Shown in pieces: positions 1-15,173 of a DNA stretch of 64,000 nucleotides. The notes beneath the pieces were generated by a model. It was not told where the DNA came from. It worked only from the letters and a program-made list of their open reading frames with translations, and searched no databases. The stretch's first letter is position 1; each line of letters opens with the position of its first letter. Origin of the DNA: an uncultured Clostridia bacterium (GTDB taxonomy: Bacteria > Bacillota > Clostridia > TANB77 > CAG-508); the NCBI GenBank assembly GCA_963556825.1, contig CAUWAM010000006.1, positions 8,127-72,126 on the forward strand, given 5' to 3'. The position numbers were made by a program, and so were the translations under genes.

Positions 1-1
1 G

Positions 2-154
2 AATATTTCTGATGAAAATAAATTAAGTAATTTATCAATAGAAGAACATTATAAGTATTATGAAAATAAAGGTTATGAAAAAAAAGAAATTATTAAATTA
101 ATTGCTAAAGATAGAAATGTAAATAAAAATGAAATTTATAAATTATTTATTTAA
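2..154 (+). CDS. rsmI: 3' end of a CDS entering from the left edge; tail resembles 16S rRNA 2'-O-methyltransferase RsmI (YabC)
   Basis: Open frame from window edge to TAA 152-154 (...EEHYKYYENKGYEKKEIIKLIAKDRNVNKNEIYKLFI*). Convergent with abrB, as yabC-abrB is in Bacillus. Only 50 aa are visible. Confidence 0.45.
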   Translation, partial: NISDENKLSNLSIEEHYKYYENKGYEKKEIIKLIAKDRNVNKNEIYKLFI

Positions 155-158
155 AATA

Positions 159-200
159 AAAAAACAAATAAAAATATTAATTATTATTTTATTTGTTTTT
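159..200. terminator. Bidirectional A/T-rich hairpin between convergent rsmI and abrB
   Basis: aaaaacaaataaaa ... ttttatttgttttt inverted repeat flanked by A/T runs. Confidence 0.5.
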
Positions 201-216
201 TATTTTTTATTTTTAA

Positions 217-477
217 TTATTTTTTTGATTCTTCATGTAAGGAATTAAGTAAATTTGCACATTTATCACACACCAATTTATTTTTATATTCTATTAAATT
301 TTTAGTATTTCCGCAAAAGATGCAATTTGGTTCATATTTTTTTAATACAATACATGGTCCGTCTACATATATTTCGACGGGATCTTTTTCGACAATATTG
401 AATTGATTTCTTATTTCCATTGGTATTACGACTCTTCCCAATTCATCAACTCTTCTTATAATTCCAGTAGATTTCAT
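217..477 (-). CDS. abrB: Transition-state regulator AbrB (SpoVT/AbrB swapped-hairpin domain) with Cys-rich C-terminal tail
   Basis: MKSTGIIRRVDELGRVVIPMEIRNQF... is the canonical AbrB N-terminus. ATG at 477 follows AAGGAGGAAA. The upstream 20 codons of the tracked ORF lack an RBS. The tail carries CIFCG...CDKC. Confidence 0.9.
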   Translation of the reverse strand: MKSTGIIRRVDELGRVVIPMEIRNQFNIVEKDPVEIYVDGPCIVLKKYEPNCIFCGNTKNLIEYKNKLVCDKCANLLNSLHEESKK

Positions 478-589
478 GTTTTTCCTCCTTAATGTTAAGT
501 ATATAATATTTATATCATAAATCATTCTTTCGGTCAATTAAAAGTAATAAAAAAATCATATGATAATAAGATTAATTAAGGTGATATTA

Positions 590-1169
590 ATGTTAAATAT
601 AGTTTGGCCATTTTTTATAATAATATCTATTTTATATGCTATTTGTTTTGGAAATTTAGAAAATTTAAATAATTCTATTTTTGAAAGTACTGCTTCAGCA
701 GTTAATTTGTCTATTACTTTAATCGGTACAATGTGTTTGTGGAGTGGAATTATGAAAATTGCAAGTGAAACATCTTTTGCACAGAAAATAACAAAATTTT
801 TAAGTCCATTAATGAAAATATTGTTTCCCAAAATAAAAAAGACAAGTAAATTATACAAAGAAATTTCCATGAATATGGTAGCAAATATATTGGGACTTGG
901 AAATGCAGCAACACCATTACGGAATTAAAGCGATGAAAACTATGCAGGAAAATAATTCAAATAAAAAAGTTTTAACAGATGAAATGGCTATTTTTATAGT
1001 ATTAAATACAGCATCTATACAATTAATTCCTACAACCGTTATTGCTATAAGGAGTTCTTTAGGATCACAAAATCCAGTAGCAATAATTTTTCCCGTATGG
1101 ATTGCTACAATTTGTGCTGCTATTGCAGGAATAGTTGCCACAAAAATATTTATAAAGATAGGGAAATAA
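590..1169 (+). pseudogene. spmA: Spore maturation protein A, split by a 1-nt insertion near 920
   Basis: ORF 560-928 ends ...GLGNAATPLRN*. ORF 897-1169 continues in the +1 frame with GIKAMKTMQ...; deleting C920 restores the conserved GNAATPLGIKAM. RBS aaggtg lies 6 nt before ATG 590. Confidence 0.8.
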
Positions 1170-1194
1170 AATATTAATTTGGAGAATATAGTAA

Positions 1195-1722
1195 ATGCAA
1201 TTTATTAGTTTTATATCAAATATGGCAATGCCGTTAATAATAATTTTAATTATAATATATGGAATTTTAGAAAGAAAAAAAGTTTTTGATATTTTTTTAG
1301 ATGGAGCAAAGGAAGGGGTAGGAATTGTTTTTAGTATATTTCCTACTTTAGTAGGATTATTTGTTGCAATAGGTTTACTTAGAAGTTCAGGAATAATTGA
1401 TTTGATTGTTAAATTTATAACACCATTATTTGATTTTATAAATTTTCCATCAGAGATACTTCCTCTTGCAATTATAAGACCAATTTCAGGAAGTGCTTCT
1501 ATTGCTGTTGCTACTGATATTATGAAAAATTTTTTCGTTGATAGTAAAATAGGATTAATAGCATCTGTGATTATGGGGTCTACAGAAACCACAGTATATA
1601 CTATTGCTGTTTATACTAGTAGTGTGGGAATAAAGAAAACAAGATTTGTGTTATGGGCTTCTTTAATTGCTGATTTTGTTGGGATTACAACTAGCATTTT
1701 GGTTTGTCAATATTTAATGTAA
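1195..1722 (+). CDS. spmB: Spore maturation protein B
   Basis: 175-aa polytopic nucleoside-recognition-type membrane protein directly after spmA; a typical spmAB pair. Confidence 0.85.
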   Translation: MQFISFISNMAMPLIIILIIIYGILERKKVFDIFLDGAKEGVGIVFSIFPTLVGLFVAIGLLRSSGIIDLIVKFITPLFDFINFPSEILPLAIIRPISGSASIAVATDIMKNFFVDSKIGLIASVIMGSTETTVYTIAVYTSSVGIKKTRFVLWASLIADFVGITTSILVCQYLM

Positions 1723-1730
1723 GTATCAGA

Positions 1731-1748
1731 TGTCAGTTTTTGTCGAAA
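1731..1748 (+). promoter_or_regulatory. 18-bp motif TGTCAGTTTTTGTCGAAA (copy 1) containing a perfect Spo0A box, TGTCGAA
   Basis: Exact duplicate of 7525-7542 in the same orientation. TGTCGAA is preceded, after a 3-bp gap, by the degenerate box TGTCAGT. Confidence 0.6.
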
Positions 1749-1784
1749 GTTTATATTTTAACTCTTTCTTTTTTTCTAATTCAA

Positions 1785-1793
1785 TGTTATAAT
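1785..1793 (+). promoter_or_regulatory. Extended -10 element TGTTATAAT with no ORF behind it
   Basis: TGnTATAAT match about 37 bp downstream of the 18-bp motif. No convincing -35 and no RBS-preceded ORF before the hairpin at 1996. Confidence 0.3.
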
Positions 1794-1995
1794 CTTTTTG
1801 ACACATATTATGATTATACTTCAATATATATATAACATTTTTATCAAAGAAAAATTTAGTATATCATATTATTATTATTGTGGAAGAAGGGAAGGAATAG
1901 GAGACTTAATTATATAAAGAGTGTATTTCCAAAGGTATTGATAGTCACATTTTTTAATTATTTTTTATCAAAATTAGAAAATATTAATAAAAAAT

Positions 1996-2027
1996 AACAA
2001 CCGAGATTTTTTAAAATCTCGATTGTT
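1996..2027 (-). terminator. Rho-independent terminator of the 2032-3831 minus-strand genes
   Basis: aacaaccgagatttt / aaaatctcgattgtt stem (one G:U pair) followed by a T-run on the minus strand. Confidence 0.7.
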
Positions 2028-2031
2028 ACAA

Positions 2032-2625
2032 CTATTTTAGAATTTCATCAACTTTAACACTTAATTCACTATCATTTTTTATTTCTATACTATGACTTTC
2101 TAAGAAATCTTTTAATAAAGAAACTTCTTCATCAGAAAGATTTTCTTTTTCTATTTCTATAATTTTTATTACTAAGTTGTATAATCTTTTTTGATTTTCT
2201 GTTAATGGTGTATTTTTTATATCTACTACTTTAGTTGAATTTTGTTCATTTTCTAAATTATTAGTTATTTCATCAAATTCGCTTGCATAATATTTTTTTA
2301 TAACATTAGCAGTATCATCAAGCTTTTTGCTAATTTCTTTAGCTTGTTCAGTATCAGCAATTTCATCCTCGTTATTTTCTGACATTGTAGACATTGTTTG
2401 AGGTATATCTATTGATGTTCCTGCTTTGTTTTGGTGTTCTTGAGCAAACTTTTCTTTTTCAGATAAAAGTCGTTCTCCTTCTTTTTTATTAGCTTCTGCT
2501 ATACTAGCATCATCCATAATAGGAATATTTAATATTGCTTTAGCAACTAATAAAGATAAAGGAATTATTAATAATACTGCTAAAAATATTATTAGAGCGA
2601 CAATTTTTTTATTTTTAATTTTCAT
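2032..2625 (-). CDS. Membrane-anchored acidic helical protein, function unknown
   Basis: N-terminal TM segment (IVALIIFLAVLLIIPLSLLVA), then an E/D/K-rich soluble part. AAGGAGGAAT RBS. Starts 34 nt after the ricin/amidase gene on the same strand. Confidence 0.7.
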   Translation of the reverse strand: MKIKNKKIVALIIFLAVLLIIPLSLLVAKAILNIPIMDDASIAEANKKEGERLLSEKEKFAQEHQNKAGTSIDIPQTMSTMSENNEDEIADTEQAKEISKKLDDTANVIKKYYASEFDEITNNLENEQNSTKVVDIKNTPLTENQKRLYNLVIKIIEIEKENLSDEEVSLLKDFLESHSIEIKNDSELSVKVDEILK

Positions 2626-2658
2626 ATAAGATTCCTCCTTATATATAATAATTATACA

Positions 2659-3831
2659 CTATATCATTTTTAAAAACAAGAAGTATTCATTAGGATTAGC
2701 TCTACATATATCTAATAAACTTTTTGATAATGTATCAGAAGAATGATAAGTAAGCAAATAAGTATTATTAGTACCATCATTTAAGTAACCAGTAACATAC
2801 ATTGTATGATGTGGGTCTGCAGCAGAACCAAATTTGGATTCAGCCATTTGGATAATACAACCTTGAGAAATTGGTAAATTCCAAGCTAAAGATGGATTAT
2901 TAACTATATCAGAACCTTTGGCTTGATAAATATTAGAAATTCTTGCTCCCCAGTAGTTTTTGAAATTTGGTGCACTTAACCATGGACCAGGTACAGAAGT
3001 ATCCCAACTATATTTTAATTGGTCATTTTTATTTATATCAGTATTATATTTATCATTTTTTCTGTAAATTTGCCAATCATTTTGATAGTGAAATCCAGAG
3101 GCTAATAAACATTGAGAAGCAAAATTTGTACAGTCAGCTGAGCATCTTGGGTATGCAGAAACTGTTTGATTGTAATTGTCTACTGCATATTTTGCACCAA
3201 GGTCAACATCAATAGAAACAGGTTCTAAAATCCATAAATCGTTCCAAGATTTATTATAATCATGTTGTATAACATTTCCTTCATCTGAACAACTTCTGTT
3301 TTCAACTACTAGGCATCTTTCGTAATTACTAATTTTTGAAGCTATTTTATAAACAGAATTATCTGTATAGTATATTTTGAATTTTTCGGAATCTCCTCCA
3401 TGGTTTGTCCAAAGATTAATATTAGCATAGTTACCTGAATTAGCACCGTATACATCTAAAGCAAAATTAGTATTAATTTGTGATAAAAATGTAAAAGTAC
3501 CATCACCATTGTAATTAATATACCATTTTTGATTATTACCACCATTGAATGAACATTGTTGTACATTAGCACCATCAGAAGCATTTCCACGATACACATC
3601 CAAATATCTTCCTGAATAAGCATTTTTTATATAAAAAGTTTTATTCATTATATGTTGAACTATGTTTCCTGGTGAATTTCTAGAAATACTATTTTGAGTA
3701 GAAGTTGAAGATAAATCTTTGGAAATATCATAATCTGCTTTGGATTGTACAGGTAAAAAAACAAAAGAAGTAAGTGCAAATATGGTAGTAAAGACTATGA
3801 TTAAATTTTTTGCTTTTGAAAATTTTTTCAT
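2659..3831 (-). CDS. Secreted ricin-B-lectin plus Amidase_6-type (Cys/His, papain-like fold) putative cell-wall amidase
   Basis: Signal peptide MKKFSKAKNLIIVFTTIFALTSFVFLPVQSKA. Three beta-trefoil subrepeats end in QKW / EKF / DLW. The C-terminal part carries SADCTNFASQCLLASG and DPHHTMYVTGY, the Cys and His motifs of the putative amidase domain family. Confidence 0.75.
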   Translation of the reverse strand: MKKFSKAKNLIIVFTTIFALTSFVFLPVQSKADYDISKDLSSTSTQNSISRNSPGNIVQHIMNKTFYIKNAYSGRYLDVYRGNASDGANVQQCSFNGGNNQKWYINYNGDGTFTFLSQINTNFALDVYGANSGNYANINLWTNHGGDSEKFKIYYTDNSVYKIASKISNYERCLVVENRSCSDEGNVIQHDYNKSWNDLWILEPVSIDVDLGAKYAVDNYNQTVSAYPRCSADCTNFASQCLLASGFHYQNDWQIYRKNDKYNTDINKNDQLKYSWDTSVPGPWLSAPNFKNYWGARISNIYQAKGSDIVNNPSLAWNLPISQGCIIQMAESKFGSAADPHHTMYVTGYLNDGTNNTYLLTYHSSDTLSKSLLDICRANPNEYFLFLKMI

Positions 3832-4106
3832 ATATAAAACCCCCTTTTAATTATTTTATAGAGATACCAAGATGGCTATAAACAAAAATTCACCTCCTTT
3901 ATTTAAACTACAATATTGCAAAATAAATTCTACAAATATATTGTTTTTTAGAAAGTGAATGTTTACTATTTGCAAAGTTCAATTTGCATATATTTTTTAA
4001 TTATATATATCATAAAAAAATAAAAATGTATAAAAAGATAAAAAAAGATAAAATATGCAACTATTTTATATAAATATATCATCTTATAAATGATAAGGAG
4101 GGGGTT

Positions 4107-4829
4107 ATGGTAAATATATTAGTAGTAGATGATAATTTTAGTTATTCTAAATGTTTAATAAATAAATTAGTATCAGATAATGTCAATATAAGAATATCGT
4201 ATATAGCTACCAACGGATGTGAAGCATTAAATAAAATAAAAGAACCTAATAATGATATAGATGTAATATTATTAGATTTGGTTTTACCTCAGATTAGTGG
4301 TTTTGAAATTTTAAAATATATAGAGGAAAATAATATTACTAAATATAAAGGTTCTGTAATAGTTTTATCTGGAGAAGTTAATAATTTCCCTAAGAATAGT
4401 TGGGTTCATTCAAGTATATCCAAAATAAGAGGATTTAATTTTGTAATAAATGAAATTGAGGATTTAATAAAAACAAAAGAGTATTGCAAACTTCCAATAG
4501 AAAAAAAAGTAAAAAATGAATTAGAAAAATTAAATTATAATTTTAAATACGTAGGAACTACATATTTATTAGAAACAATAATATTATTGTACAACCAAGA
4601 AACAAATAACAGAATTAAACTTGAAAAAAATATATATCCTATAATTGCAAAAAAATATAATACCACTGTACATAATATAAAAATAAATATAATAAATTCA
4701 ACTAAAGAGATGTATTTTGACTGTGCAGAATCAACGTTATTTAAAACTTTAAAATTGGTTCAGGGGGAAAAGCCAAAACCCAAAGATGTAATCTCATCAA
4801 TAATTGCAAAATTAAAAAATTTTGAATAA
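4107..4829 (+). CDS. Orphan response regulator with a Spo0A-type C-terminal DNA-binding domain (divergent Spo0A paralogue)
   Basis: Receiver domain with VVDDN and ILLDLVLP acceptor-Asp motifs. The C-terminal [10 protein letters not shown]...[26 protein letters not shown] aligns to Spo0A YLREAI...[28 protein letters not shown], but the recognition-helix residues differ. AAGGAGGGGG RBS. Confidence 0.75.
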   Translation: [240 protein letters not shown]

Positions 4830-4832
4830 TAA

Positions 4833-4860
4833 AAAGAGTTCTCTATCAACAGAACTCTTT
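4833..4860. terminator. Hairpin between convergent genes 4107-4829 and 4900-5409
   Basis: aaagagttct / agaactcttt 10-bp stem with an 8-nt loop. Confidence 0.6.
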
Positions 4861-4899
4861 AGAATTAGGAAGATAAATGTTAATTTGGGTAAGAAATTA

Positions 4900-5409
4900 T
4901 TAATTACCTACATAAATCTCATATTTTACCCAAGCGCTTCTATAAAATCCTGGTGGATTACTAATACTACTTGCATCAACAAAAACCTGTATTCTACGAC
5001 CTGGATAAACATTAGCAAATCCTCCTATAAAGCTAGTTGATGTAGTCCCGTCATTATGCAAATCCTTGATTACTGTGCTAGACAAAATTTCGCCAGTATC
5101 ATAATCTCTTAGCTGAATAGTTAACTGAATCTGACTATTTGAAGAATCAGCTCGTCTAAACTCTCCAGTAAGAAAAATGTAACTTCCAGAATCAACTACT
5201 TTATATGGAGTTAGATTATTATTGTTGAATGTATATTCAGATGCATAGGTCTTTCCAGCTTGCCAATGAGTAGTTGCTCGAGCTTCAACAGAATTTTCAG
5301 CTACGAGCGGATTTTCTTGTGCAAACACATCAAAACTTGATAATGATAAAATCATTATTGTGGTTAATAACAAACTAAGAACTTTTTTTATATTTACTGC
5401 TTTTTTCAT
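4900..5409 (-). CDS. Small secreted protein, function unknown (last gene of the ECF sigma operon)
   Basis: Internal ATG at 5409 gives MKKAVNIKKVLSLLLTTIMILSLSSFDVFAQE (signal peptide) preceded by GGGAGA. The mature part reads as beta-rich by composition. The upstream 31 codons of the tracked ORF have no RBS. Confidence 0.65.
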   Translation of the reverse strand: MKKAVNIKKVLSLLLTTIMILSLSSFDVFAQENPLVAENSVEARATTHWQAGKTYASEYTFNNNNLTPYKVVDSGSYIFLTGEFRRADSSNSQIQLTIQLRDYDTGEILSSTVIKDLHNDGTTSTSFIGGFANVYPGRRIQVFVDASSISNPPGFYRSAWVKYEIYVGN

Positions 5410-5515
5410 AATATGTCTCCCTTCGTTTGAAATCTTCCTAATTCTCATGTAGAACACGATAATATTTTTACATACTCTTTCTAATTTTTCAAGAAAAGAC
5501 AAAAAAAGACAAAAT

Positions 5516-6742
5516 TTATTCTTTTTCTAATTCAATTTTAATATCTTTTTCTAGATATTTAAAATGTAAAATTAAATTGTCAGTAGCATCTTTTTTTGTT
5601 AAATCTATAGTTTGAAAAAAGTTAAAATCTCCATTGGAAGAATATATATAATTAGTGTCAGTATCATTACTTGATGTAGCATAAAACTTATCATTGTTTT
5701 CGTTAATAATATAGATATCTGAAAATGGATTTTTGTGTGAATATTTTTCAAATAAATCTTTTAAATCTTTTTGATTGTTTATTTTCATATTTAATTCATC
5801 AATTTTATTTTGTTTCGTTTCAAAATCATCATCGATATTTATATAAGATTTTATGAAATTTATCATATCTGATGTGTTATTATTTTCAATTTTTGTAAAT
5901 AATTCTAATTTTGTTCCAGTATCAGTAACTTGTAATTTTTTTAATTCAATGTCACTATTATTAGATTTTATACTATAAGAAATAATTTCACGATTATAAA
6001 ATTGTTCAGGAACATCTAAAACAAAACTCCATTCTCCATTTGTACTTTCATTTTCTATATTATTAAAGATAATTTTTTTAATATTAATATATAGATATTT
6101 ACTTTTTGGATAATTAAGTGATGTAAAATTATAAATGCATTCAAAAGAATTTGACTTCTTGCTTTTGATATAACTATTTACACCACTATTAGAAAATGAG
6201 TTGTTGAATTTTTCAGAGTTGAATTCTATTCCATTATTGTTACAAAAGGCTTGTATCAGTTTAATATTATCACTATAAATAATATTATTATTTTCATCTG
6301 TTATAATAAAATCTTTTAAGCTAATATTTTTAACTTTTCCTAAACTTTTATTAGTAGTTGAAGTTATATAGAATGTAAAATCCAAGTTGTTATCATCCAT
6401 CAAAAAATTCTCAATACTTATTTTTATGTTATTGGATTCAGCAATAGCATTTTTTGGATTTTCTAAATACCCATTTTGAATGGCTGTATCAATTCCAGTA
6501 TTAAAATTAAAAAAGTTATGTACAAATTGAGATATATCTTTTGCAAAGACAACACCTCCAGTTATTGTAAAAAGACCAGTTAAAATTATTATTATTTTTT
6601 TTAATACTAATGATAGAGTTGGTTTATTTTTTTTATTTTTTAGCGCAGAATCTATTCCTTCAGATATAATAGTAGGTATTTTTTGATTATTTTTAAAATA
6701 ATCAAATAGAAAATTATCAATTTTATCATAATTATTATACAT
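5516..6742 (-). CDS. Putative single-pass anti-sigma factor
   Basis: Start overlaps the sigma gene stop by 8 nt. About 60 aa cytoplasmic N-terminus, one TM (IIIILTGLFTITGGVVFA), large N/K/I-rich extracytoplasmic domain. No HxxxCxxC zinc motif. The role is inferred from architecture and position only. Confidence 0.5.
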   Translation of the reverse strand: MYNNYDKIDNFLFDYFKNNQKIPTIISEGIDSALKNKKNKPTLSLVLKKIIIILTGLFTITGGVVFAKDISQFVHNFFNFNTGIDTAIQNGYLENPKNAIAESNNIKISIENFLMDDNNLDFTFYITSTTNKSLGKVKNISLKDFIITDENNNIIYSDNIKLIQAFCNNNGIEFNSEKFNNSFSNSGVNSYIKSKKSNSFECIYNFTSLNYPKSKYLYINIKKIIFNNIENESTNGEWSFVLDVPEQFYNREIISYSIKSNNSDIELKKLQVTDTGTKLELFTKIENNNTSDMINFIKSYINIDDDFETKQNKIDELNMKINNQKDLKDLFEKYSHKNPFSDIYIINENNDKFYATSSNDTDTNYIYSSNGDFNFFQTIDLTKKDATDNLILHFKYLEKDIKIELEKE

Positions 6743-7268
6743 TTAAAATTCCTCCTTCAAATTCTTTTCTTATTTTTTCTTTTGCTCTTGCAATTTTACT
6801 TTTTACAGTATTAATGTTCATATTTAAAATTTTTGAAATTTCACTACATGAATAATTACTGTTATAGAATAATGTAATTATTAATTTTTCGTCTGTAGAT
6901 AGACTATATAATAATTTTTCAAAGTCTAATTTCGAGTCAATATAATGAATAGAATCTTCATTATATTCCATAGAATTACTTTTGTAGATTTTATTGATTA
7001 GAGAATTTTTTTTGCTTTTCTTTCTATAAATTTGATTACATTCATTTATAAGTATTTTTATAATCCAAGATTTAAAAGTATCGATATTTTTTAGTTTATT
7101 TAACTTTTTGTATGATTTTATAATGGTTTCTTGAATTGCATCATTTATATCATCTAAATCACTCAACTTACTTCTAGCAATTCTATATAAATCATTTTGT
7201 ATTAGTTTAATTAATTCAGTATAAGCTTCTTTATCTCCATTTTGGGAACGAAATATTAATTCTTTCAT
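6735..7268 (-). CDS. ECF-type RNA polymerase sigma-70 family factor
   Basis: Region 2 (DAIQETIIKSYKKLNKL...FKSWIIKILINECNQIYRK) and region 4 HTH (YSCSEISKILNMNINTVKSKIARAKEKIRKE); 177 aa. Confidence 0.85.
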   Translation of the reverse strand: MKELIFRSQNGDKEAYTELIKLIQNDLYRIARSKLSDLDDINDAIQETIIKSYKKLNKLKNIDTFKSWIIKILINECNQIYRKKSKKNSLINKIYKSNSMEYNEDSIHYIDSKLDFEKLLYSLSTDEKLIITLFYNSNYSCSEISKILNMNINTVKSKIARAKEKIRKEFEGGILNV

Positions 7269-7524
7269 CTTTTTTCTCCTTTCATACTAATAAGATGATA
7301 ATTTCTTATATTTTGGGTGCATAACATAGAAAATTATAACAAAAAGTTATATATAAATTTCTGATTGTTTTTTTACATATTATAGATTATTTTTTTCTAT
7401 TCTTCTATTATATAAAATTGCGAAAATTTATTTAAATAATAATATAATAAAGTTGTAGTTTTTTTCGATATAATAGTAAATAAGATTATAAAAATAAAAA
7501 AGAAACTACTTTTTAATTTATGCT

Positions 7525-7542
7525 TGTCAGTTTTTGTCGAAA
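7525..7542 (+). promoter_or_regulatory. 18-bp motif TGTCAGTTTTTGTCGAAA (copy 2), 8 bp upstream of a consensus -35
   Basis: Exact duplicate of 1731-1748. The perfect 0A box TGTCGAA sits at 7535-7541. Confidence 0.6.
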
Positions 7543-7550
7543 TTTTCTTG

Positions 7551-7579
7551 TTGACAAATTAAAAATTACGTTGTAAAAT
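7551..7579 (+). promoter_or_regulatory. SigA-type promoter (TTGACA, 17-bp spacer, TAAAAT)
   Basis: TTGACA 7551-7556; TAAAAT 7574-7579. Confidence 0.6.
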
Positions 7580-7624
7580 TATAACACAAATTTGGACAAA
7601 TTATTTTTTACATTAGGAGGTTTT

Positions 7625-7720
7625 ATGATTTTTAAAATCGTATTATTTTTTTCAATTTTTTTTATTGTCAAAAAAATAATTGCTAAAGTATTAGCAATTA
7701 TAATCTTAAAAAATCAATAA
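7625..7720 (+). CDS. 31-aa hydrophobic/basic peptide (MIFKIVLFFSIFFIVKKIIAKVLAIIILKNQ), below the ORF-track cutoff
   Basis: AGGAGG lies 5 nt before the ATG, about 45 nt downstream of the promoter at 7551-7579. One predicted TM helix with a Lys-rich centre. Confidence 0.45.
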   Translation: MIFKIVLFFSIFFIVKKIIAKVLAIIILKNQ

Positions 7721-7885
7721 TTAAAATTTTATAAAAATTGTTTTTAATCTTGTAGGGAAAATATGATCCCCCCATTTTTATTGTAATATAGATTAAGATT
7801 TTTTGTTATATTGTTATCACGTCCCACATTTAAATCAAAATCATTTTAAATCAATAACATATTTTCTCTACAATACATTTATATA

Positions 7886-8365
7886 TTATTTATGATATGT
7901 TTCTCCATTTATTATTTTAAAAGCTCTAAAAATTTGCTCTAATAAAAATACACGTATTAATTGATGGGGAAATGTCATTTTTGAAAAACATATTTTTTGA
8001 TTAGATAAATTTAAAAGCTTTTCATTAATTCCAAGTGAGCCACCAATAATAAAAGTAATATTACTATGTTGCATAGATATGTCTTGAATATCTTGTGCAA
8101 ATTCCTCAGAAGAAAATTGTTTGCCTTTTAGGTCAAGACATATTACATATGTATCTTTTTTTAGATGATTTATTACATTTTCACTTTCTATGTTTTTGAT
8201 TTCGTTTTCTATAGTTAAATTAGATTTATCTGGAATTTTTTTATCCGGTAATTCTAAAATATTTAATTTACAAAATTTAGAAAGTCGTTTTGAATATTCA
8301 TCTATAGCATCCTTTAAATATTTTTCTTTTATTTTTCCTGTACATATTATATTTATTGTTATCAT
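7886..8365 (-). CDS. rlmH: 23S rRNA (pseudouridine1915-N3)-methyltransferase RlmH
   Basis: 159-aa SPOUT protein (MITINIICTGKIKEKYLKDAIDEYSKRL...IIGGSLG...MTFPHQLIRVFLLEQIFRAF). Confidence 0.9.
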   Translation of the reverse strand: MITINIICTGKIKEKYLKDAIDEYSKRLSKFCKLNILELPDKKIPDKSNLTIENEIKNIESENVINHLKKDTYVICLDLKGKQFSSEEFAQDIQDISMQHSNITFIIGGSLGINEKLLNLSNQKICFSKMTFPHQLIRVFLLEQIFRAFKIINGETYHK

Positions 8366-8403
8366 TTTTATTTACCTTTAATATATTTAAGTTTTATAAA
8401 AAC

Positions 8404-9192
8404 TTATAAACTTATTTTGTTTCCTGGTATGTCACGACTTGCTACACTTAATTTTAGTGAGTTTTCATTATATTGCGTACACATTATCTCGTCTACTACT
8501 GTTTTATACGCTAGTTCTGGAAAGTTGCTTTGTTTACTTAAATGTCCTAAAATAGCTTGTTGTAAACCAGAATGAAGAAGATGAGAAATTGTTTTTCCTG
8601 CGGATTCGTTTGATAAATGCCCTACTGGACCTGCAATTCTTGTTTTTAGTTGATATGGATATTTTGAATATTTTAGTACTTCAGGATCATAATTAGACTC
8701 TAACATGATAAAAATACTATCTTCTAAATTTTTTAATACACCATTTGTCATATGTCCAATATCTGTTGCGATACTTATTTTTTTATTATCTTTAAAAATA
8801 TTAAAACCACAAGGATTTGCAGCATCATGTGGAATTGAAAAAGGCTTAACATTGAAGTCGCCTATTTCAAAGTTTTCATCAATATTAAATAAATTTATAT
8901 TTTTTTCTAATATTTTTTCTTTTTGTTTTGGCATAGCATCTAATGTCTTTTGATTTACAAAGACTGGTAAATTGAATTTTTTTGCAAAAGTACCAAGTCC
9001 TTGTACATGATCTGAATGTTCATGTGTTACTAATATTCCATTTATAGAAGATGGATCAATTTCTAAATTTGTTAAAGCTTCTTCAATTTTTTTACTACTA
9101 ACACCGGCGTCAATTAAAAGTTTTGTGTTTTCTGATTCTATAAATAGACTATTACCACTACTGCCACTATATAAACTACAAAAATTAAACAT
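8404..9192 (-). CDS. MBL-fold metallo-hydrolase, YycJ/WalJ-like
   Basis: HEHSDH motif, 262 aa, directly upstream of rlmH as in Bacillus. Confidence 0.8.
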   Translation of the reverse strand: MFNFCSLYSGSSGNSLFIESENTKLLIDAGVSSKKIEEALTNLEIDPSSINGILVTHEHSDHVQGLGTFAKKFNLPVFVNQKTLDAMPKQKEKILEKNINLFNIDENFEIGDFNVKPFSIPHDAANPCGFNIFKDNKKISIATDIGHMTNGVLKNLEDSIFIMLESNYDPEVLKYSKYPYQLKTRIAGPVGHLSNESAGKTISHLLHSGLQQAILGHLSKQSNFPELAYKTVVDEIMCTQYNENSLKLSVASRDIPGNKISL

Positions 9193-9211
9193 GTTTGATT
9201 TCTTCCTTTGA

Positions 9212-10471
9212 TTATTCTTCTACTCTTTCAATATTTGCACCTATTTTTCTAAATTTTTCTTCTATTTTTTCGTAACCTCTATCAATATGAGAAAGGTTAT
9301 ATACTTCTGTTGTTCCAGTTGCAGAAACACCAGCTATAATTAAAGCTGCTCCCGCTCTTAAGTCTGTTGAATAAACAGGTGCACCAAATAATTCATCTAC
9401 TCCTTCAAATATTGCAGATTTTCCTTGTGCTGTTATTTTGGCTCCCATATTATTTAATTCTGCTGTGTATTGAAATCTAGATTCCCAAATGCTTTCATTT
9501 ATAATACTTGTACCATTAGCAGTTGCTAGAACAACTCCCATTTGTGGTTGTAAGTCTGTAGGAAATCCAGGATATGGTAATGTTTTTATATTTGTTTTAT
9601 TTGGTCTTTTACTATACCAAACTCTTATACTATCACCATAATCTTCAACATTTCCACCAATTTCTAATATTTTAGCAGTTAAGGCTTCTAAATGTTTTGT
9701 TATACAATTTTTTATTAATAAATCACCTTTTGAAGCTATTGCGGCAAGCATAAATGTTCCAGCTTCTATTTGGTCAGGTACAACTGAATATGTAGCGTTT
9801 CCATGCAATTTTTCTACACCAGTAATTTTTATAACATCTGTACCTGCTCCTCTAATGTCTGCTCCCATTGTATTTAAAAAGTTTGCAACATCAACTACAT
9901 GAGGTTCTTTTGCAGCATTATCTATTGTTGTTACACCTTTTGCTAAAACAGCTGAAAGCATAATATTAATTGTTGCTCCAACAGAAACAATATCCATATA
10001 TATAGAATTACCAGTAAGTTTATCTGCTTTTGCATGAATTGTTCCTTTTTCTACTGTTACATTAGCTCCTAATAATTCAAATCCTTTTATATGTTGGTCA
10101 ATAGGTCTTGCTCCTAAATTACAACCACCAGGCATTCCTACTTCTATTTCACCCATTCTTCCAAGCATTGCACCAATAACATAATAAGATGCTCTAAATT
10201 TACTTGTTAAATCTAGAGGTGCTTGAGTAGTATTAATATCTCTTGTATCTATTGTTATTTCATTTGGAGTATTCCATGTTATTTTTGCTCCTAATTTTTC
10301 TAATATTGTGCAACAAATTTGAACATCACTTATATTTGGTAAGTTATTAATTGTACAAACTCCATCTATAAGTAATGTTGCTGGTAATAGTGCTATTGCT
10401 GCATTTTTTGCTCCATTTATTTCAACTACACCTTTTAAAGGTGTAGGTCCTGTTATTACTAATTTTTCCAA
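9212..10471 (-). CDS. murA: UDP-N-acetylglucosamine 1-carboxyvinyltransferase
   Basis: INGAKNAAIALLPATLL and the active-site loop GGCNLGARPIDQHIKG; 419 aa. Confidence 0.95.
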   Translation of the reverse strand: MEKLVITGPTPLKGVVEINGAKNAAIALLPATLLIDGVCTINNLPNISDVQICCTILEKLGAKITWNTPNEITIDTRDINTTQAPLDLTSKFRASYYVIGAMLGRMGEIEVGMPGGCNLGARPIDQHIKGFELLGANVTVEKGTIHAKADKLTGNSIYMDIVSVGATINIMLSAVLAKGVTTIDNAAKEPHVVDVANFLNTMGADIRGAGTDVIKITGVEKLHGNATYSVVPDQIEAGTFMLAAIASKGDLLIKNCITKHLEALTAKILEIGGNVEDYGDSIRVWYSKRPNKTNIKTLPYPGFPTDLQPQMGVVLATANGTSIINESIWESRFQYTAELNNMGAKITAQGKSAIFEGVDELFGAPVYSTDLRAGAALIIAGVSATGTTEVYNLSHIDRGYEKIEEKFRKIGANIERVEE

Positions 10472-10547
10472 TTGAATTCCTCCTAGTTAGGTATAAATAT
10501 TTGCTTAAAATATATCATAAACTAGAGAGTATTGCAATAGCAAATAT

Positions 10548-11213
10548 TTAATTTTTAGCAGTAATTAGTCCAGAATTTGCAAACATTTCTAATAATTTAA
10601 ATTTAAATTTTATTCCGTAATTAGAATCATTTGAAATTAGGGAGTATTCTTCATGAGATAAATTGTTCTTTAATTCTTCTTTTGATTCTTCTGGAACTAT
10701 TCCAGAAGATATATCTACAAAGCAGAGAGAAGGAAACATTACACACCACCAGTTTCTTCCTTTAGCTTCTCCGATTTCGACTTTTAAAGCATCATAAAAA
10801 CCAGCAGGTAATGAAATATCACCATAGTTCTTTGTAGGAAATTCAAAATTTCCTATTTCTATATTTACATTGTAAGAATAACCTTCATTATGAATTGTTT
10901 GTAATGCTATATTTTTAAATTCTTCTTGGTGTTTAGTTACAATTTCTATAGCTTCTTCTTTTGAACTACAATTGTCACATAAATTATTCATATATTTTAA
11001 TAAGCTATCTCTAACTTTATATTTTAAATTTTGGTCTTCATCACTATTACTATTTGCAATTACGTGAAGTCTAAAAACGCTTTCTGCTATATCTGAAGAA
11101 GTTGTTTGTGCATAAGAAATTGCACAAATTCCAGTATACAATATTAGAAGAAAAGTTAATATAAGTGTAATTTTAAATTTGGGATTTTTAATAAATTTTA
11201 AAAATTTTTTCAT
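10548..11213 (-). CDS. spoIIR: Stage II sporulation protein R
   Basis: Signal/TM segment, then FRLHVIANSNSDEDQNLKYKVRD..., the SpoIIR signature. Confidence 0.9.
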   Translation of the reverse strand: MKKFLKFIKNPKFKITLILTFLLILYTGICAISYAQTTSSDIAESVFRLHVIANSNSDEDQNLKYKVRDSLLKYMNNLCDNCSSKEEAIEIVTKHQEEFKNIALQTIHNEGYSYNVNIEIGNFEFPTKNYGDISLPAGFYDALKVEIGEAKGRNWWCVMFPSLCFVDISSGIVPEESKEELKNNLSHEEYSLISNDSNYGIKFKFKLLEMFANSGLITAKN

Positions 11214-11314
11214 GAGTTACCTCCAATAAACTTTTTTGTTAAAATATTCTTTAATTTAATTATTTACCAGTTTTATAAAAATATACATATACTTAAACGT
11301 CGAAAAAACACGAT

Positions 11315-11347
11315 GAAATATTCTTGAAATATTCTTGAAATAATATT
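11315..11347 (+). repeat. Three tandem 11-bp units (gaaatattctt x2, then gaaataatatt) abutting a -35
   Basis: Read directly from the sequence. The helical-turn periodicity continues upstream with cgatGAAA and gtcGAAA. Confidence 0.7.
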
Positions 11348-11374
11348 GACATATTGAAATAAAAATGGTAAAAT
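11346..11374 (+). promoter_or_regulatory. SigA-type promoter (TTGACA, 17-bp spacer, TAAAAT)
   Basis: TTGACA 11346-11351; TAAAAT 11369-11374. Confidence 0.6.
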
Positions 11375-11444
11375 TTACCAGTGTTCAAAAATAGATAATC
11401 AAAAGAAAAAATTAGTGTTTGAAACTGAAAGGGTTGAGAAAATC

Positions 11445-11915
11445 ATGTTAAAGAAAAACAAAAGTAAAGAAAAAAATTGCTTATTTTTTGCAAGTGACTA
11501 TCATTTTGAAATGATAAGTTTACCATATATTAATAAGAGTATAAAAGAAAATAAAGAGGTTGTTGTAATTTCAGAAAACAATTTAGAAAATACTATTAAT
11601 AAATTATTATTACGAGTAAATTTACAAGAAGAAGAAAGAAATAAAATTTTAAAAATTAACTGGAATAATAATGATTTTGATAAATTTAAAGAAATAAAAG
11701 AAGCTAATAAAGAAAGAAAAAATACAATTGTATTTATAAAAGGAAAAGAAAATTATATAAAAAATGTTAATAAAAATATAGAAAATTGGATTAATGAAAA
11801 TAATAAAATAGAAATAATTGATTGTTATGATATTAATGAAGTGGAAGAAAATATAGGAGAAATAACTAAAAAATATAATAATGTATTAATAACATCTGGA
11901 ATGAAAAAATTATAA
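11445..11915 (+). CDS. Hypothetical cytoplasmic protein (about 156 aa)
   Basis: The tracked ORF begins at 11415 with a non-ATG codon. ATG 11445 (MLKKNKSKEKNCLFFASDYHFEMISLPYI...) is the more plausible start. No recognisable family. Confidence 0.6.
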   Translation: MLKKNKSKEKNCLFFASDYHFEMISLPYINKSIKENKEVVVISENNLENTINKLLLRVNLQEEERNKILKINWNNNDFDKFKEIKEANKERKNTIVFIKGKENYIKNVNKNIENWINENNKIEIIDCYDINEVEENIGEITKKYNNVLITSGMKKL

Positions 11916-12012
11916 ACATGATAAATATTTGATGAATACTTGATAAATTTCAAAATTTGGTGTATAAATATATAAAAAAATGCAAAAGTAAATGTTGAAA
12001 GGATATGAAAAT

Positions 12013-13442: not shown

Positions 13443-15173
13443 ATGAAAGATTATTTAGAAGAATATCAAAAATGGATAGAAAGTTCAGATTTTGATGAAG
13501 AAACAAAAAGTGAATTAAAAGCAATTAAAGATGATGAAAAGGAAATAGAAGACAGATTTTATAAAGAATTAGAGTTTGGTACAGCTGGGCTTCGTGGAGT
13601 TATTGGGGCTGGAACAAATAGAATGAATAAATATACTGTTGGAAAAGCAACACAAGGTTTAGCAAATTACATATTGGAACAAGGTACACAATATAAAGGA
13701 GTTGCGATAAGTTATGATTCTAGAAAAATGTCAAAAGAATTTAGTATGCAAACAGCGTTAATATTAAATGCAAATGGAATAAAAACATATTTATTTGAAA
13801 GTTTAAGACCAGTACCAGAATTATCTTTTGCAGTAAGAGAGTTAAAATGTACAGCTGGAATAATGATTACAGCAAGTCATAATCCACCAAAATATAATGG
13901 ATATAAAGTTTATTGGGATGATGGTGCGCAAATAGTTAGCCCAAGAGATAAAGATATAATTGCAAAAGTAAGAGATGTTAAAGAATATAGTGAAATTAAA
14001 GAAATTTCAAAAGAAGAGGCAATTGAAAAAGGTTTATTTAATGTTGTTGGAACTGAAATGGATGATAAATACATAAATACTTTGAAATCATTAATATTAA
14101 ATCCAGAGATTGTAAAAGAACAAGGAAAAAGTTTAAAAGTTGTATATACTCCTCTACACGGAACAGGAAATATGGTTGCTGAGAGACTTTTAAAGGAAAT
14201 AGGAATTGAAAATTTATATGTTGTTCCTGAACAAAAAGAACCAGATGGAAATTTTCCAACAGTAGATTATCCAAATCCAGAAGACAAAAAAGCATTTAAA
14301 TTAGCTCTAGAATTAGCTAAAAAAGTTGATGCTGATGTAGTACTTGCAACAGACCCTGATGCGGATAGATTAGGAATATATGCCAAAGATAATAAAACTG
14401 GTGAATATATGACATATACAGGAAATATGTCTGCATTATTAATTGCAGAATATAGAATTTCTCAAATGCAAGAAAAAGGGCTTTTACCTGAAAAAGGAAT
14501 GTTTATTACAACAATAGTTTCATCAGATTTAGCTAAAGCAATTGCTTCAAATTACGGATTAGAATGTTTTGAAGTTTTAACCGGATTCAAAAATATTGGT
14601 TCTATTATGAAAAGGGAAGAAGAAAAAGCTGATGGAGATAAATATGTATTTGGTTTTGAGGAAAGTTATGGTTGCTTAATAGGGGATTATGCGAGAGATA
14701 AAGATGGAATAGCAGCTGTAATGGCATTATGCGAAGCGGCTTGTTATTACAAATCTAAAGGTGAAACTTTATGGGATCAGATGATAAATATATATGAAAA
14801 ATATGGATATTATAAAGAATCTCAAGTTTCTATAGTTTTAGAAGGTGCCGAAGGGGCCGAAAAAATTCAAGAAATGATGACAAATATGAGAAATACACCA
14901 ATAGAAAAAATTGGAAAATATAAAGTATTAGAATTTAAAGATATAGACAAAGATTATGTAAAAAATATGATAACAGGAGAAGAAAGCAAATCTGGATTAC
15001 CAAAATCTAATGTTTTATATTATGGATTAGAAGATAATAATTGGTGTTGTGTTAGACCATCTGGAACAGAACCAAAAATTAAATTATATATGGGAATTAA
15101 AGGAAAATCTGAACAAGATGCTAATACAAAATTAGAAGAATTAAAAGATGCAATGGTTGCAATAGTTAAATAG
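13443..15173 (+). CDS. pgcA: Phosphoglucomutase/phosphomannomutase family protein (PgcA-like)
   Basis: ITASHNPPKYNGYKVY phosphoserine loop and ATDPDADRLG metal loop; 576 aa. Confidence 0.9.
   Translation: MKDYLEEYQKWIESSDFDEETKSELKAIKDDEKEIEDRFYKELEFGTAGLRGVIGAGTNRMNKYTVGKATQGLANYILEQGTQYKGVAISYDSRKMSKEFSMQTALILNANGIKTYLFESLRPVPELSFAVRELKCTAGIMITASHNPPKYNGYKVYWDDGAQIVSPRDKDIIAKVRDVKEYSEIKEISKEEAIEKGLFNVVGTEMDDKYINTLKSLILNPEIVKEQGKSLKVVYTPLHGTGNMVAERLLKEIGIENLYVVPEQKEPDGNFPTVDYPNPEDKKAFKLALELAKKVDADVVLATDPDADRLGIYAKDNKTGEYMTYTGNMSALLIAEYRISQMQEKGLLPEKGMFITTIVSSDLAKAIASNYGLECFEVLTGFKNIGSIMKREEEKADGDKYVFGFEESYGCLIGDYARDKDGIAAVMALCEAACYYKSKGETLWDQMINIYEKYGYYKESQVSIVLEGAEGAEKIQEMMTNMRNTPIEKIGKYKVLEFKDIDKDYVKNMITGEESKSGLPKSNVLYYGLEDNNWCCVRPSGTEPKIKLYMGIKGKSEQDANTKLEELKDAMVAIVK

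Follow-up and report, generated by a model that had tools for sequence, protein, structure and literature searches.

A probable conjugative-element remnant, inserted with duplication of an 18-bp operator-like sequence between spmB and rlmH of an uncultured Clostridia bacterium

Introduction

Cis-mobilizable elements (CIMEs) are decayed derivatives of ICEs (integrative and conjugative elements) or of integrative and mobilizable elements (IMEs), described in streptococci with a classical size of 1.2-13 kb; some ICEs and IMEs integrate at the 3' ends of conserved genes such as rpmG, rpsI, fda or tRNA genes, with direct repeats of 10-60 bp (PMC7563491). The locus considered here belongs to a 64-kb stretch of DNA of an uncultured Clostridia bacterium (the whole stretch will be referred to as "the window"), in which a 5.8-kb block, flanked by spmA and spmB on its left and by rlmH on its right, stands between two copies of an 18-bp sequence ("the 18-mer"). 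We consider it probable (roughly 0.6) that this block, a decayed, CIME-like remnant, derives from a conjugative element and was inserted at an operator with duplication of the 18 bp. Like CIMEs, it is small, carries only cargo, lacks conjugation and recombination genes and has direct repeats at both ends, and its ancestral target, as seen in sister species, overlaps spmB, a conserved gene, at its 3' end. Unlike CIMEs, its boundaries are internal to the parent element, it has no tandem partner element, its repeats are only candidate att sites, and its target apparently serves also as a transcription-factor operator. With ICEs and IMEs of the 3'-end type it shares the direct repeat (18 bp), a target at or beside the stop codon of a conserved gene and a precise empty site in relatives, and it differs from them in the absence of an integrase.

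The 18-mer itself recalls the paired sites of the phosphorylated sporulation regulator Spo0A (Spo0A~P). The 0A box is TGTCGAA, of which G2, C4 and G5 are contacted, a specificity common to a clostridial Spo0A (PMC3485338), and two 0A boxes 3 bp apart are jointly protected by Spo0A (PMC2731898). The tandem boxes of the phi29/Nf A2c promoters and of abrB (PMC2731898, PMC3485338) resemble our element in their TGTCGAA core, in the imperfect box of the same orientation 3 bp away and in the adjoining sigma-A promoter; unlike them, the candidate boxes described here lie upstream of a near-consensus promoter and not over or after it, and the upstream box departs from the consensus at three positions. 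The contents of the block, for their part, are comparable to extracytoplasmic function (ECF) sigma modules of the SigV/RsiV type (PMC4183432, PMC6066255), as its ECF sigma gene overlaps a gene for a membrane anti-sigma factor with a DUF4179-like region and has a cell-wall amidase as neighbor. It differs from SigV/RsiV in that the DUF4179 match is below cut-off, that a Spo0A_C-type regulator belongs to the module and that the module appears to be conjugative-element cargo. Broadly, this is an ordinary kind of genomic island, in unusually clean detail.

The Repeat and the Empty Site

The sequence TGTCAGTTTTTGTCGAAA is present in two exact copies, both on the plus strand, and no further site with up to three mismatches was found in the 64 kb of the window; dinucleotide-preserving shuffles of the window give an expectation of 0.01 for sites with up to two mismatches and of 0.14 for up to three. 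The original prediction, made from the letters of this DNA alone, had described two copies in the same orientation that were no low-complexity coincidence, each with a perfect 0A box preceded by a degenerate one 3 bp away, and both statements hold (TGTCAGT-TTT-TGTCGAA, with the perfect boxes at 1741-1747 and 7535-7541). The repeat and what it encloses are as follows:

1731-1748, plus strand: left 18-mer copy, with the ancestral spmB-side flank kept on one side and block DNA on the other
1749-7524, no strand assigned: inserted block of 5,776 bp, apparently a conjugative-element cargo fragment, absent from strain contig L009 and from the sister species
7525-7542, plus strand: right 18-mer copy, TGTCAGT-TTT-TGTCGAA-A, operator-like, at about -61 to -44 of the promoter of a peptide gene

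The repeated sequence is no longer than the 18-mer: widening it to 22 nt brings one mismatch, and the 120 nt 5' or 3' of both copies are no more similar to each other than shuffled sequence. A larger duplicated promoter was ruled out, as the homology does not extend past the 18 bp. The window contains three TGTCGAA sites, where 1.5 would be expected; the 18-mer copies account for two of them. The third (388-394, minus strand) lies within a gene of the AbrB/SpoVT type (MazE_antitoxin fold; 217-537, minus strand), divergent from spmA.

The exact SpmB sequence was found in 19 contigs, of which most have the six-gene block. In contig L009 (Logan SRR7530112), which encodes an identical SpmB, spmB runs directly to rlmH, and its sequence equals, base for base, the left flank of the window, a single 18-mer and the right flank of the window; one similar place exists besides. 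The block is also absent from all 49 contigs sampled from four sister species (SpmB 93, 92, 83, and 82% identical), in which the order is spmA-spmB-(330-480 bp)-rlmH-lactamase_B-murA-spoIIR and the spmB-rlmH interval holds one operator copy, a promoter and a small open reading frame (ORF). Furthermore, the outgroup L023 (SpmB 60%) has one identical 18-mer just after spmB. The search for an empty site proposed with the original prediction has thereby been carried out, with the joined flanks of L009 and the four empty sister species as its outcome, and because L009, the sister species and L023 all have a single-copy site, the block is, on this comparison, a lineage-specific insertion, together with which the duplication arose.

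The opposite view, in which AT-rich DNA produced the repeat by coincidence or the empty-site contig arose as an artefact of assembly, has nothing for it except the low complexity of the genome and is already effectively refuted. Against it are the low chance expectation given above, the second place similar to L009 and the occurrence of the same junction in all sister species. Logan assemblies use k=31, so that an 18-bp repeat is shorter than the k-mer and could not have collapsed a 5.8-kb interval; the empty site of L009 is taken as a real allele for this reason. As for its history, nine positions in 7585-8204 and seven in the block distinguish the block-carrying L005/L127 lineage from the window, and L009 lacks these single-nucleotide differences, which weakly suggests that L009 lost the block through recombination between the 18-bp repeats and not that it never had it.

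The Block as Conjugative-Element Cargo

The block contains six genes and the following further features, in order:

1749-1806, plus strand: left junction segment, with an extended -10-like TGtTATAAT at 1785-1793; no match in related conjugative elements
1817-1985, plus strand: DUF5697 pseudogene remnant, about codons 81-139, frameshifted and with deletions (blastn and tblastn)
1994-2029, no strand assigned: hairpin terminator 3' of the 197-amino-acid gene, possibly bidirectional (fold z-score -4.5)
2032-2625, minus strand: membrane-anchored acidic protein of 197 amino acids, no family
2659-3831, minus strand: secreted RicinB-lectin and Amidase_6 protein of 390 amino acids
4107-4829, plus strand: regulator with Response_reg and Spo0A_C-type output domains, member of a paralogue family (Pfam)
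4900-5409, minus strand: secreted protein of 169 amino acids, no family
5516-6742, minus strand: membrane anti-sigma factor with DUF4179-like region, below the Pfam cut-off (25.4 vs 30.1 bits)
6735-7268, minus strand: ECF sigma factor (Pfam)
7484-7524, plus strand: right junction segment; no match in related conjugative elements

The gene content between the copies and the conserved nature of the flanks are as originally described, and so is the lack of an integrase: none of the six genes encodes a recombinase, nor a relaxase, coupling protein or VirB4, and the intergenic gaps measure at most 283 bp. The base composition of the block is the same as that of its flanks, and none of its genes has a paralogue elsewhere in the window.

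The origin of the block can be traced by homology. Window positions 1960-7483 are 97.2% identical, over 5.5 kb, to positions 4852-10375 of contig L155, and the same six-gene block is found in four contigs (L155-L158). In L155 its neighbors are genes for a VirD4/TraG coupling protein, DUF5697, a DnaG-like primase and PcfJ. On the related backbone of another four contigs (L159-L162), which additionally bears an M23 peptidase, a sortase and a SpaA/TED adhesin, the same slot downstream of DUF5697 holds a variant module of the same design. Because of this module among conjugation genes and of the variant in the same slot, the block is, as judged from these comparisons, cargo of a conjugative element. 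The synonymous divergence (dS) of its genes from the L155 module is 0.04-0.12 per gene, and a regulator allele 98% identical to that of the window (P0001), the one carried by the block of L155-L158, is much commoner than the window allele, with 161 blocks in the collection index. The DUF5697 remnant matches L155 4547-4625 by blastn (85.7%), and the DUF5697 protein of L155 gives two tblastn matches to it, in different frames; since the window keeps this decayed remnant, the transfer went from element to chromosome. On the left, homology to the element stops about 58 nt inward of the repeat, and on the right 41 nt inward of it.

Relatives of the block were absent from IMG/VR, phage records and plasmid records, and the window holds no recombinase related to those of phage L049 or of contig L138 (both treated below). 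Insertion of a DDE transposon with target-site duplication was rejected, as the block has no transposase and the 18-bp duplication is too long, transposon target-site duplications usually measuring 2-14 bp; no convincing terminal inverted repeats were found at the ends of the block, and the sole inverted repeat is weak and internal (20-25 nt inside the ends, 23/30 matching, p about 0.004-0.016). A likeness between the left junction and the 3' end of the anti-sigma gene (26/29) was likewise set aside as probably not significant given the AT-richness.

Two observations on conjugation genes stand apart. Within the PcfJ gene of L155, at 14675-14691 on the minus strand, there is a perfect tandem 0A pair, TGTCGAA-TAT-TGTCGAA. 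In the window itself, a lone VirD4/TraG-type coupling protein gene (31411-32937, with 30127-30675 and 30942-31433) stands among housekeeping genes (DnaJ-like, metallophosphatase, prfA), and may be another conjugative-element relic in this genome.

The 18-mer as a Probable Promoter-Coupled Operator

To the right of the block, the right copy is followed by a predicted promoter and a small gene:

7551-7579, plus strand: sigma-A-type promoter, TTGACA (7551-7556), 17-nt spacer, TAAAAT (7574-7579), conserved in the alignment
7625-7720, plus strand: small ORF of 31 amino acids, hydrophobic with a KK motif, preceded by an AGGAGG ribosome-binding site

The right copy thus lies 8 nt upstream of a -35, as the original prediction had it. 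Each of the six species aligned has the same succession of element, 8-nt T-rich spacer, TTGACAAAT, 17 nt, TAAAAT-like -10, ribosome-binding site and an ORF beginning with MIFKI, and the operator, the 8-nt spacer and TTGACAAAT are invariant columns of an intergenic alignment whose mean identity is 62%. The orthologous peptides measure 31-37 amino acids in the six species and differ by conservative substitutions only; no homologue was found among 1.84 billion representative proteins, and the family has no match in Pfam or NCBIfam. The alignment shows the 18-mer as the upstream element of a predicted sigma-A-type promoter directly 3' of spmB throughout this group of uncultured gut Clostridia.

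Beyond this group, the 18-mer has 36 matches in 596 Gb of genomes, against about 17 by chance, and 69 in metagenomes. Numerous genome-wide copies in unrelated contexts had been named beforehand as evidence against a special role of the repeat, and the outcome is that the count is close to what random occurrence would give, with never two copies per contig. An AT-rich Clostridia subset, however, is coupled to promoters. In fact, TTGACA stands exactly 8 nt 3' of the 18-mer in 4 of the 79 distinct contexts outside the species (about 0.02 expected), representing three independent loci of gut Clostridia (L023, L032 and the CAG:389 group), and the genes behind this arrangement elsewhere are unrelated, among them those of a TasA-like secreted protein and a coiled-coil protein. 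Since the exact 18-mer, 8 nt and TTGACA precede unrelated genes above chance, the 18-mer behaves, to judge from its contexts, as a transcription-factor site coupled to a promoter. In IMG/VR the operator-plus-promoter pattern was not found, and the sister-type operator gave two GC-rich matches, both unrelated.

Regarding the protein that would bind it, the half nearest the promoter is a perfect TGTCGAA in the window species, and TGTCAGT, the upstream half, has three mismatches to the 0A box. Sister species carry the variants TGTCGAT-TTT-TGTCGTA-A and TGTCGTT-TTT-TGTCGAA-A, because of which both halves can be read as near-consensus 0A boxes in a 10-bp register. As this arrangement matches what has been reported for 0A boxes (PMC3485338, PMC2731898), Spo0A~P is the probable ligand. 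A different regulator of TGTC-N6-TGTC direct repeats, either another response regulator or one of the Spo0A_C paralogues, which are common in these bacteria, would account for TGTCAGT being poor as a 0A box and yet identical in several unrelated promoters, for downstream genes that are not classical sporulation genes, and for the 10-bp tandem geometry that the 18-mer shares with the candidate box of the paralogue family (see below). We regard it as rather unlikely, since the half nearer the promoter reads TGTCGAA without mismatch wherever coding does not constrain it, the sister halves TGTCGAT and TGTCGTA each depart from the consensus at a single position, species and strains without the block and its paralogue possess the operator too, and TCGAA of the 0A box corresponds to TCTTT in the paralogue's candidate box.

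The unannotated 31-amino-acid peptide gene, with its strongly conserved 0A-type promoter beside spmAB in a large group of uncultured gut Clostridia, is a candidate for an early-sporulation or Spo0A-controlled function. Behind it, 7740-7773 (GTTTTTAATCTTGTAGGGAAAATATGATCCCC) is strongly conserved in the six species, and folds only as a weak hairpin followed by a T run (z-score about 0); no known RNA family was found in window 1-12000. An antisense promoter within the small ORF, which would have suggested a type I toxin-antitoxin system, was discarded because the minus-strand TTGACA is not conserved in L150 and L023.

The original prediction had offered, as one of two readings, a duplicated operator controlling both edges of the block. 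The right edge bears this out with a conserved, operator-like copy, but control of both edges is not supported, because the left copy faces only the pseudogene remnant and the terminator. That both copies are kept as working operators, one regulator co-ordinating a left-edge transcript (starting about 1795) with the peptide gene, seems very improbable to us. The TGtTATAAT behind the left copy and the continued identity of both copies speak in its favor; opposed to it are the lack of any ORF or stable structure 3' of that copy, where there is only the frameshifted DUF5697 remnant and the terminator, and a left -35 that, at the native spacing, matches at only three of six positions (TTTAAC). As to the identity of the copies, neutral divergence is at most about 7% (dS), at which chance alone would keep two 18-mers identical in about one case in four, so that identity is no evidence of selection; with dS of only 0.04-0.12, its use as proof was dropped. 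A structured small RNA after the left copy was also discarded, as no stable fold exists. We infer that the right copy is a working operator-like element and the left copy a by-product without a regulatory target.

Apparent Recurrent Duplication at the 3' End of spmB

The ancestral position of the operator is the end of spmB itself. In sister species an intact operator, TGTCGATTTTTGTCGTAA, overlaps the last spmB codons, and at the same position the window retains a degraded version:

1705-1722, plus strand: operator relic TGTCAATATTTAATGTAA, which includes the spmB stop codon; the sister operator occupies the same position

Most SpmB homologues end in VCRFLS (TGT CGA TTT TTG TCG TAA), whereas SpmB of the window ends in VCQYLM. 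In the window species 8 unrelated nt separate the degraded copy from the intact 18-mer behind it; in the L150 lineage, whose SpmB ends in VCKFLYS, 40 unrelated nt lie between a degraded copy at the end of the gene (L150, about 9562-9582) and an intact operator further on. Only where no other copy exists is the one at the spmB end perfectly conserved. This pattern, together with the repeated appearance of extra copies, supports an operator function and makes the site a recurrent target; the same 18 bp seem to have gained an extra copy plus unrelated filler at least twice independently, besides the 5.8-kb case. A regulatory site would here be a recombination hotspot, for which two lineages bear traces of three or more duplication events.

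How the Insertion May Have Arisen

In the mechanism that we propose, a circular conjugative element would have integrated by a crossover in the 18-bp core, either site-specifically or in Campbell fashion through a matching sequence of the element, and internal deletions would then have reduced it to a CIME-like remnant with cargo only and no recombinase. The duplication would leave the peptide gene its operator and promoter at the native 8-nt spacing, with a spare copy beside spmB; because the right copy keeps that spacing, the control region of the peptide is intact. Later recombination between the two 18-bp repeats is the likeliest source of the block-free strain. The repeated use of the same 18 bp favors integration, which also fits known ICE biology, and we put integration in the 18-bp core followed by internal deletions at a little short of even odds. 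The other reading of the original prediction, an att-like target duplication left by a site-specific insertion that had since decayed, is borne out in its insertion, target duplication, decay and lack of integrase (by L009, the sister species, the 97% identical cargo and the pseudogene), but not in its site-specificity.

Several findings weigh against the explanation given here. Since the homology begins and ends within the element, one integration and two deletions are needed, and the junction segments 1749-1806 and 7484-7524 match nothing available. The 18-mer is absent from the approximately 35 kb of related element that were read, and no integrase, excisionase or attP was found, the 10-kb walk to one side having stopped short of the element's end. 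Among 185,579 species representatives, no contig has two 18-mer copies. The polarity of the L009 allele depends on few single-nucleotide differences and could be confounded by recombination. Finally, the promoter already has a near-consensus -35 and -10, so that an activator is not obviously needed.

Some of these findings are better accommodated by a one-step capture of a linear fragment of the element at a staggered break, with nicks 18 nt apart and fill-in duplicating the operator, in which neither an integrase nor an att site would have had a part. A single event would be enough, both homology boundaries are element-internal (one of them mid-gene), the unmatched segments of 58 and 41 nt at the junctions look like filler, and the same 18 bp were apparently duplicated earlier with short fillers, of 8 nt here and 40 nt in the L150 lineage. 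The repeated use of identical 18 bp, however, fits sequence-specific recognition better than random breakage. End-joining insertion of kilobase fragments is rare in bacteria, and we know of no enzyme that would make an 18-nt stagger in such a context; capture of this kind is in our judgment unlikely. Whatever its route, the case of an insertion in a control region that leaves the region intact, because the target was duplicated, is a clean natural one.

A bolder extension of the integration model would make the operator also the chromosomal site at which a family of conjugative elements attaches; Spo0A~P bound there would gate integration or excision, and the short-filler copies would be footprints of earlier cycles. 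If it were true, the mobility of the island would be tied to entry into sporulation; we hold it to be quite improbable.

The exact 18-mer is also present in the IMG/VR phage L049 (UViG_3300011008_000161), at 5103-5120, between the serine integrase and the lysis genes, and no prophage flanked by the 18-mer was found. L049 is a temperate phage with an S24 repressor, a large serine integrase, a holin and an endolysin, and at 5217-5260 another TGTCGAA precedes, by 5 nt, the TTGACA-17-TATACT promoter of a 27-amino-acid hydrophobic ORF.

The Regulator Encoded in the Block

In a full-length alignment the block regulator is 22% identical to Spo0A and keeps the receiver aspartates. Its score against TIGR02875, the Spo0A equivalog, is 58.3 bits with a cut-off of 200, and its recognition helix reads HNIKINIINSTKEMY, in contrast to the SRVERAIRHAIEVAW of all true Spo0A proteins, a set that includes the sequence of PDB 1LQ1, which exactly matches that of Bacillus subtilis Spo0A. 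By these sequence criteria the protein is a member of a paralogue family and not Spo0A. Its relatives form a clade with a helix consensus of its own, and recur beside ECF sigma/anti-sigma pairs or Amidase_6 genes.

A tandem box of the form T(A/G)TCTTTTTTT(A/G)TCTTTT, in a 10-bp register, is restricted in the window to two sites, both of which lie inside the block (chance 0.06):

4033-4050, minus strand: candidate paralogue box TATCTTTTTTTATCTTTT, in the divergent intergenic region between the regulator and amidase genes
5494-5511, minus strand: candidate paralogue box TGTCTTTTTTTGTCTTTT, followed after 1 nt by a TTGAAA -35 upstream of the 169-amino-acid gene

The same box stands beside regulator homologues in three divergent loci (L137, about 6247, minus strand; L133, 2000, and L135, 132, both plus strand). 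The paralogue probably controls the block from within and not through the 18-mer; the earlier suggestion that it acts via the 18-mer does not agree with its different recognition helix and its own candidate box. The comparisons suggest that conjugative elements carry as cargo, beside ECF sigma/anti-sigma pairs and cell-wall amidases, a family of regulators that are Spo0A-like and have an apparent tandem box of their own. The peptide promoter, the recurrent duplication of the operator and the paralogue box may in the end outweigh the repeat itself in worth.

A distant relative of the module is found in L138 (10134-13293), where an ECF sigma factor and a DUF4179 anti-sigma factor accompany a Spo0A_C protein without the receiver aspartates; two large serine recombinase genes, adjacent to each other, are found 6 kb away.

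Variation Among Strains

In every strain of the species, as well as in the L150 group, spmA consists of two overlapping ORFs (560-928 and 897-1169), while it is intact (190-192 amino acids) in L023, L139, L140 and L144; the split gene is either a fixed frameshift or a two-part gene. In the strain represented by L006 the regulator gene, with 235 amino acids, has lost 15 bp in frame (equivalent to window 4550-4564), and 41 bp are deleted upstream of the AbrB-like gene (equivalent to window 53-93).

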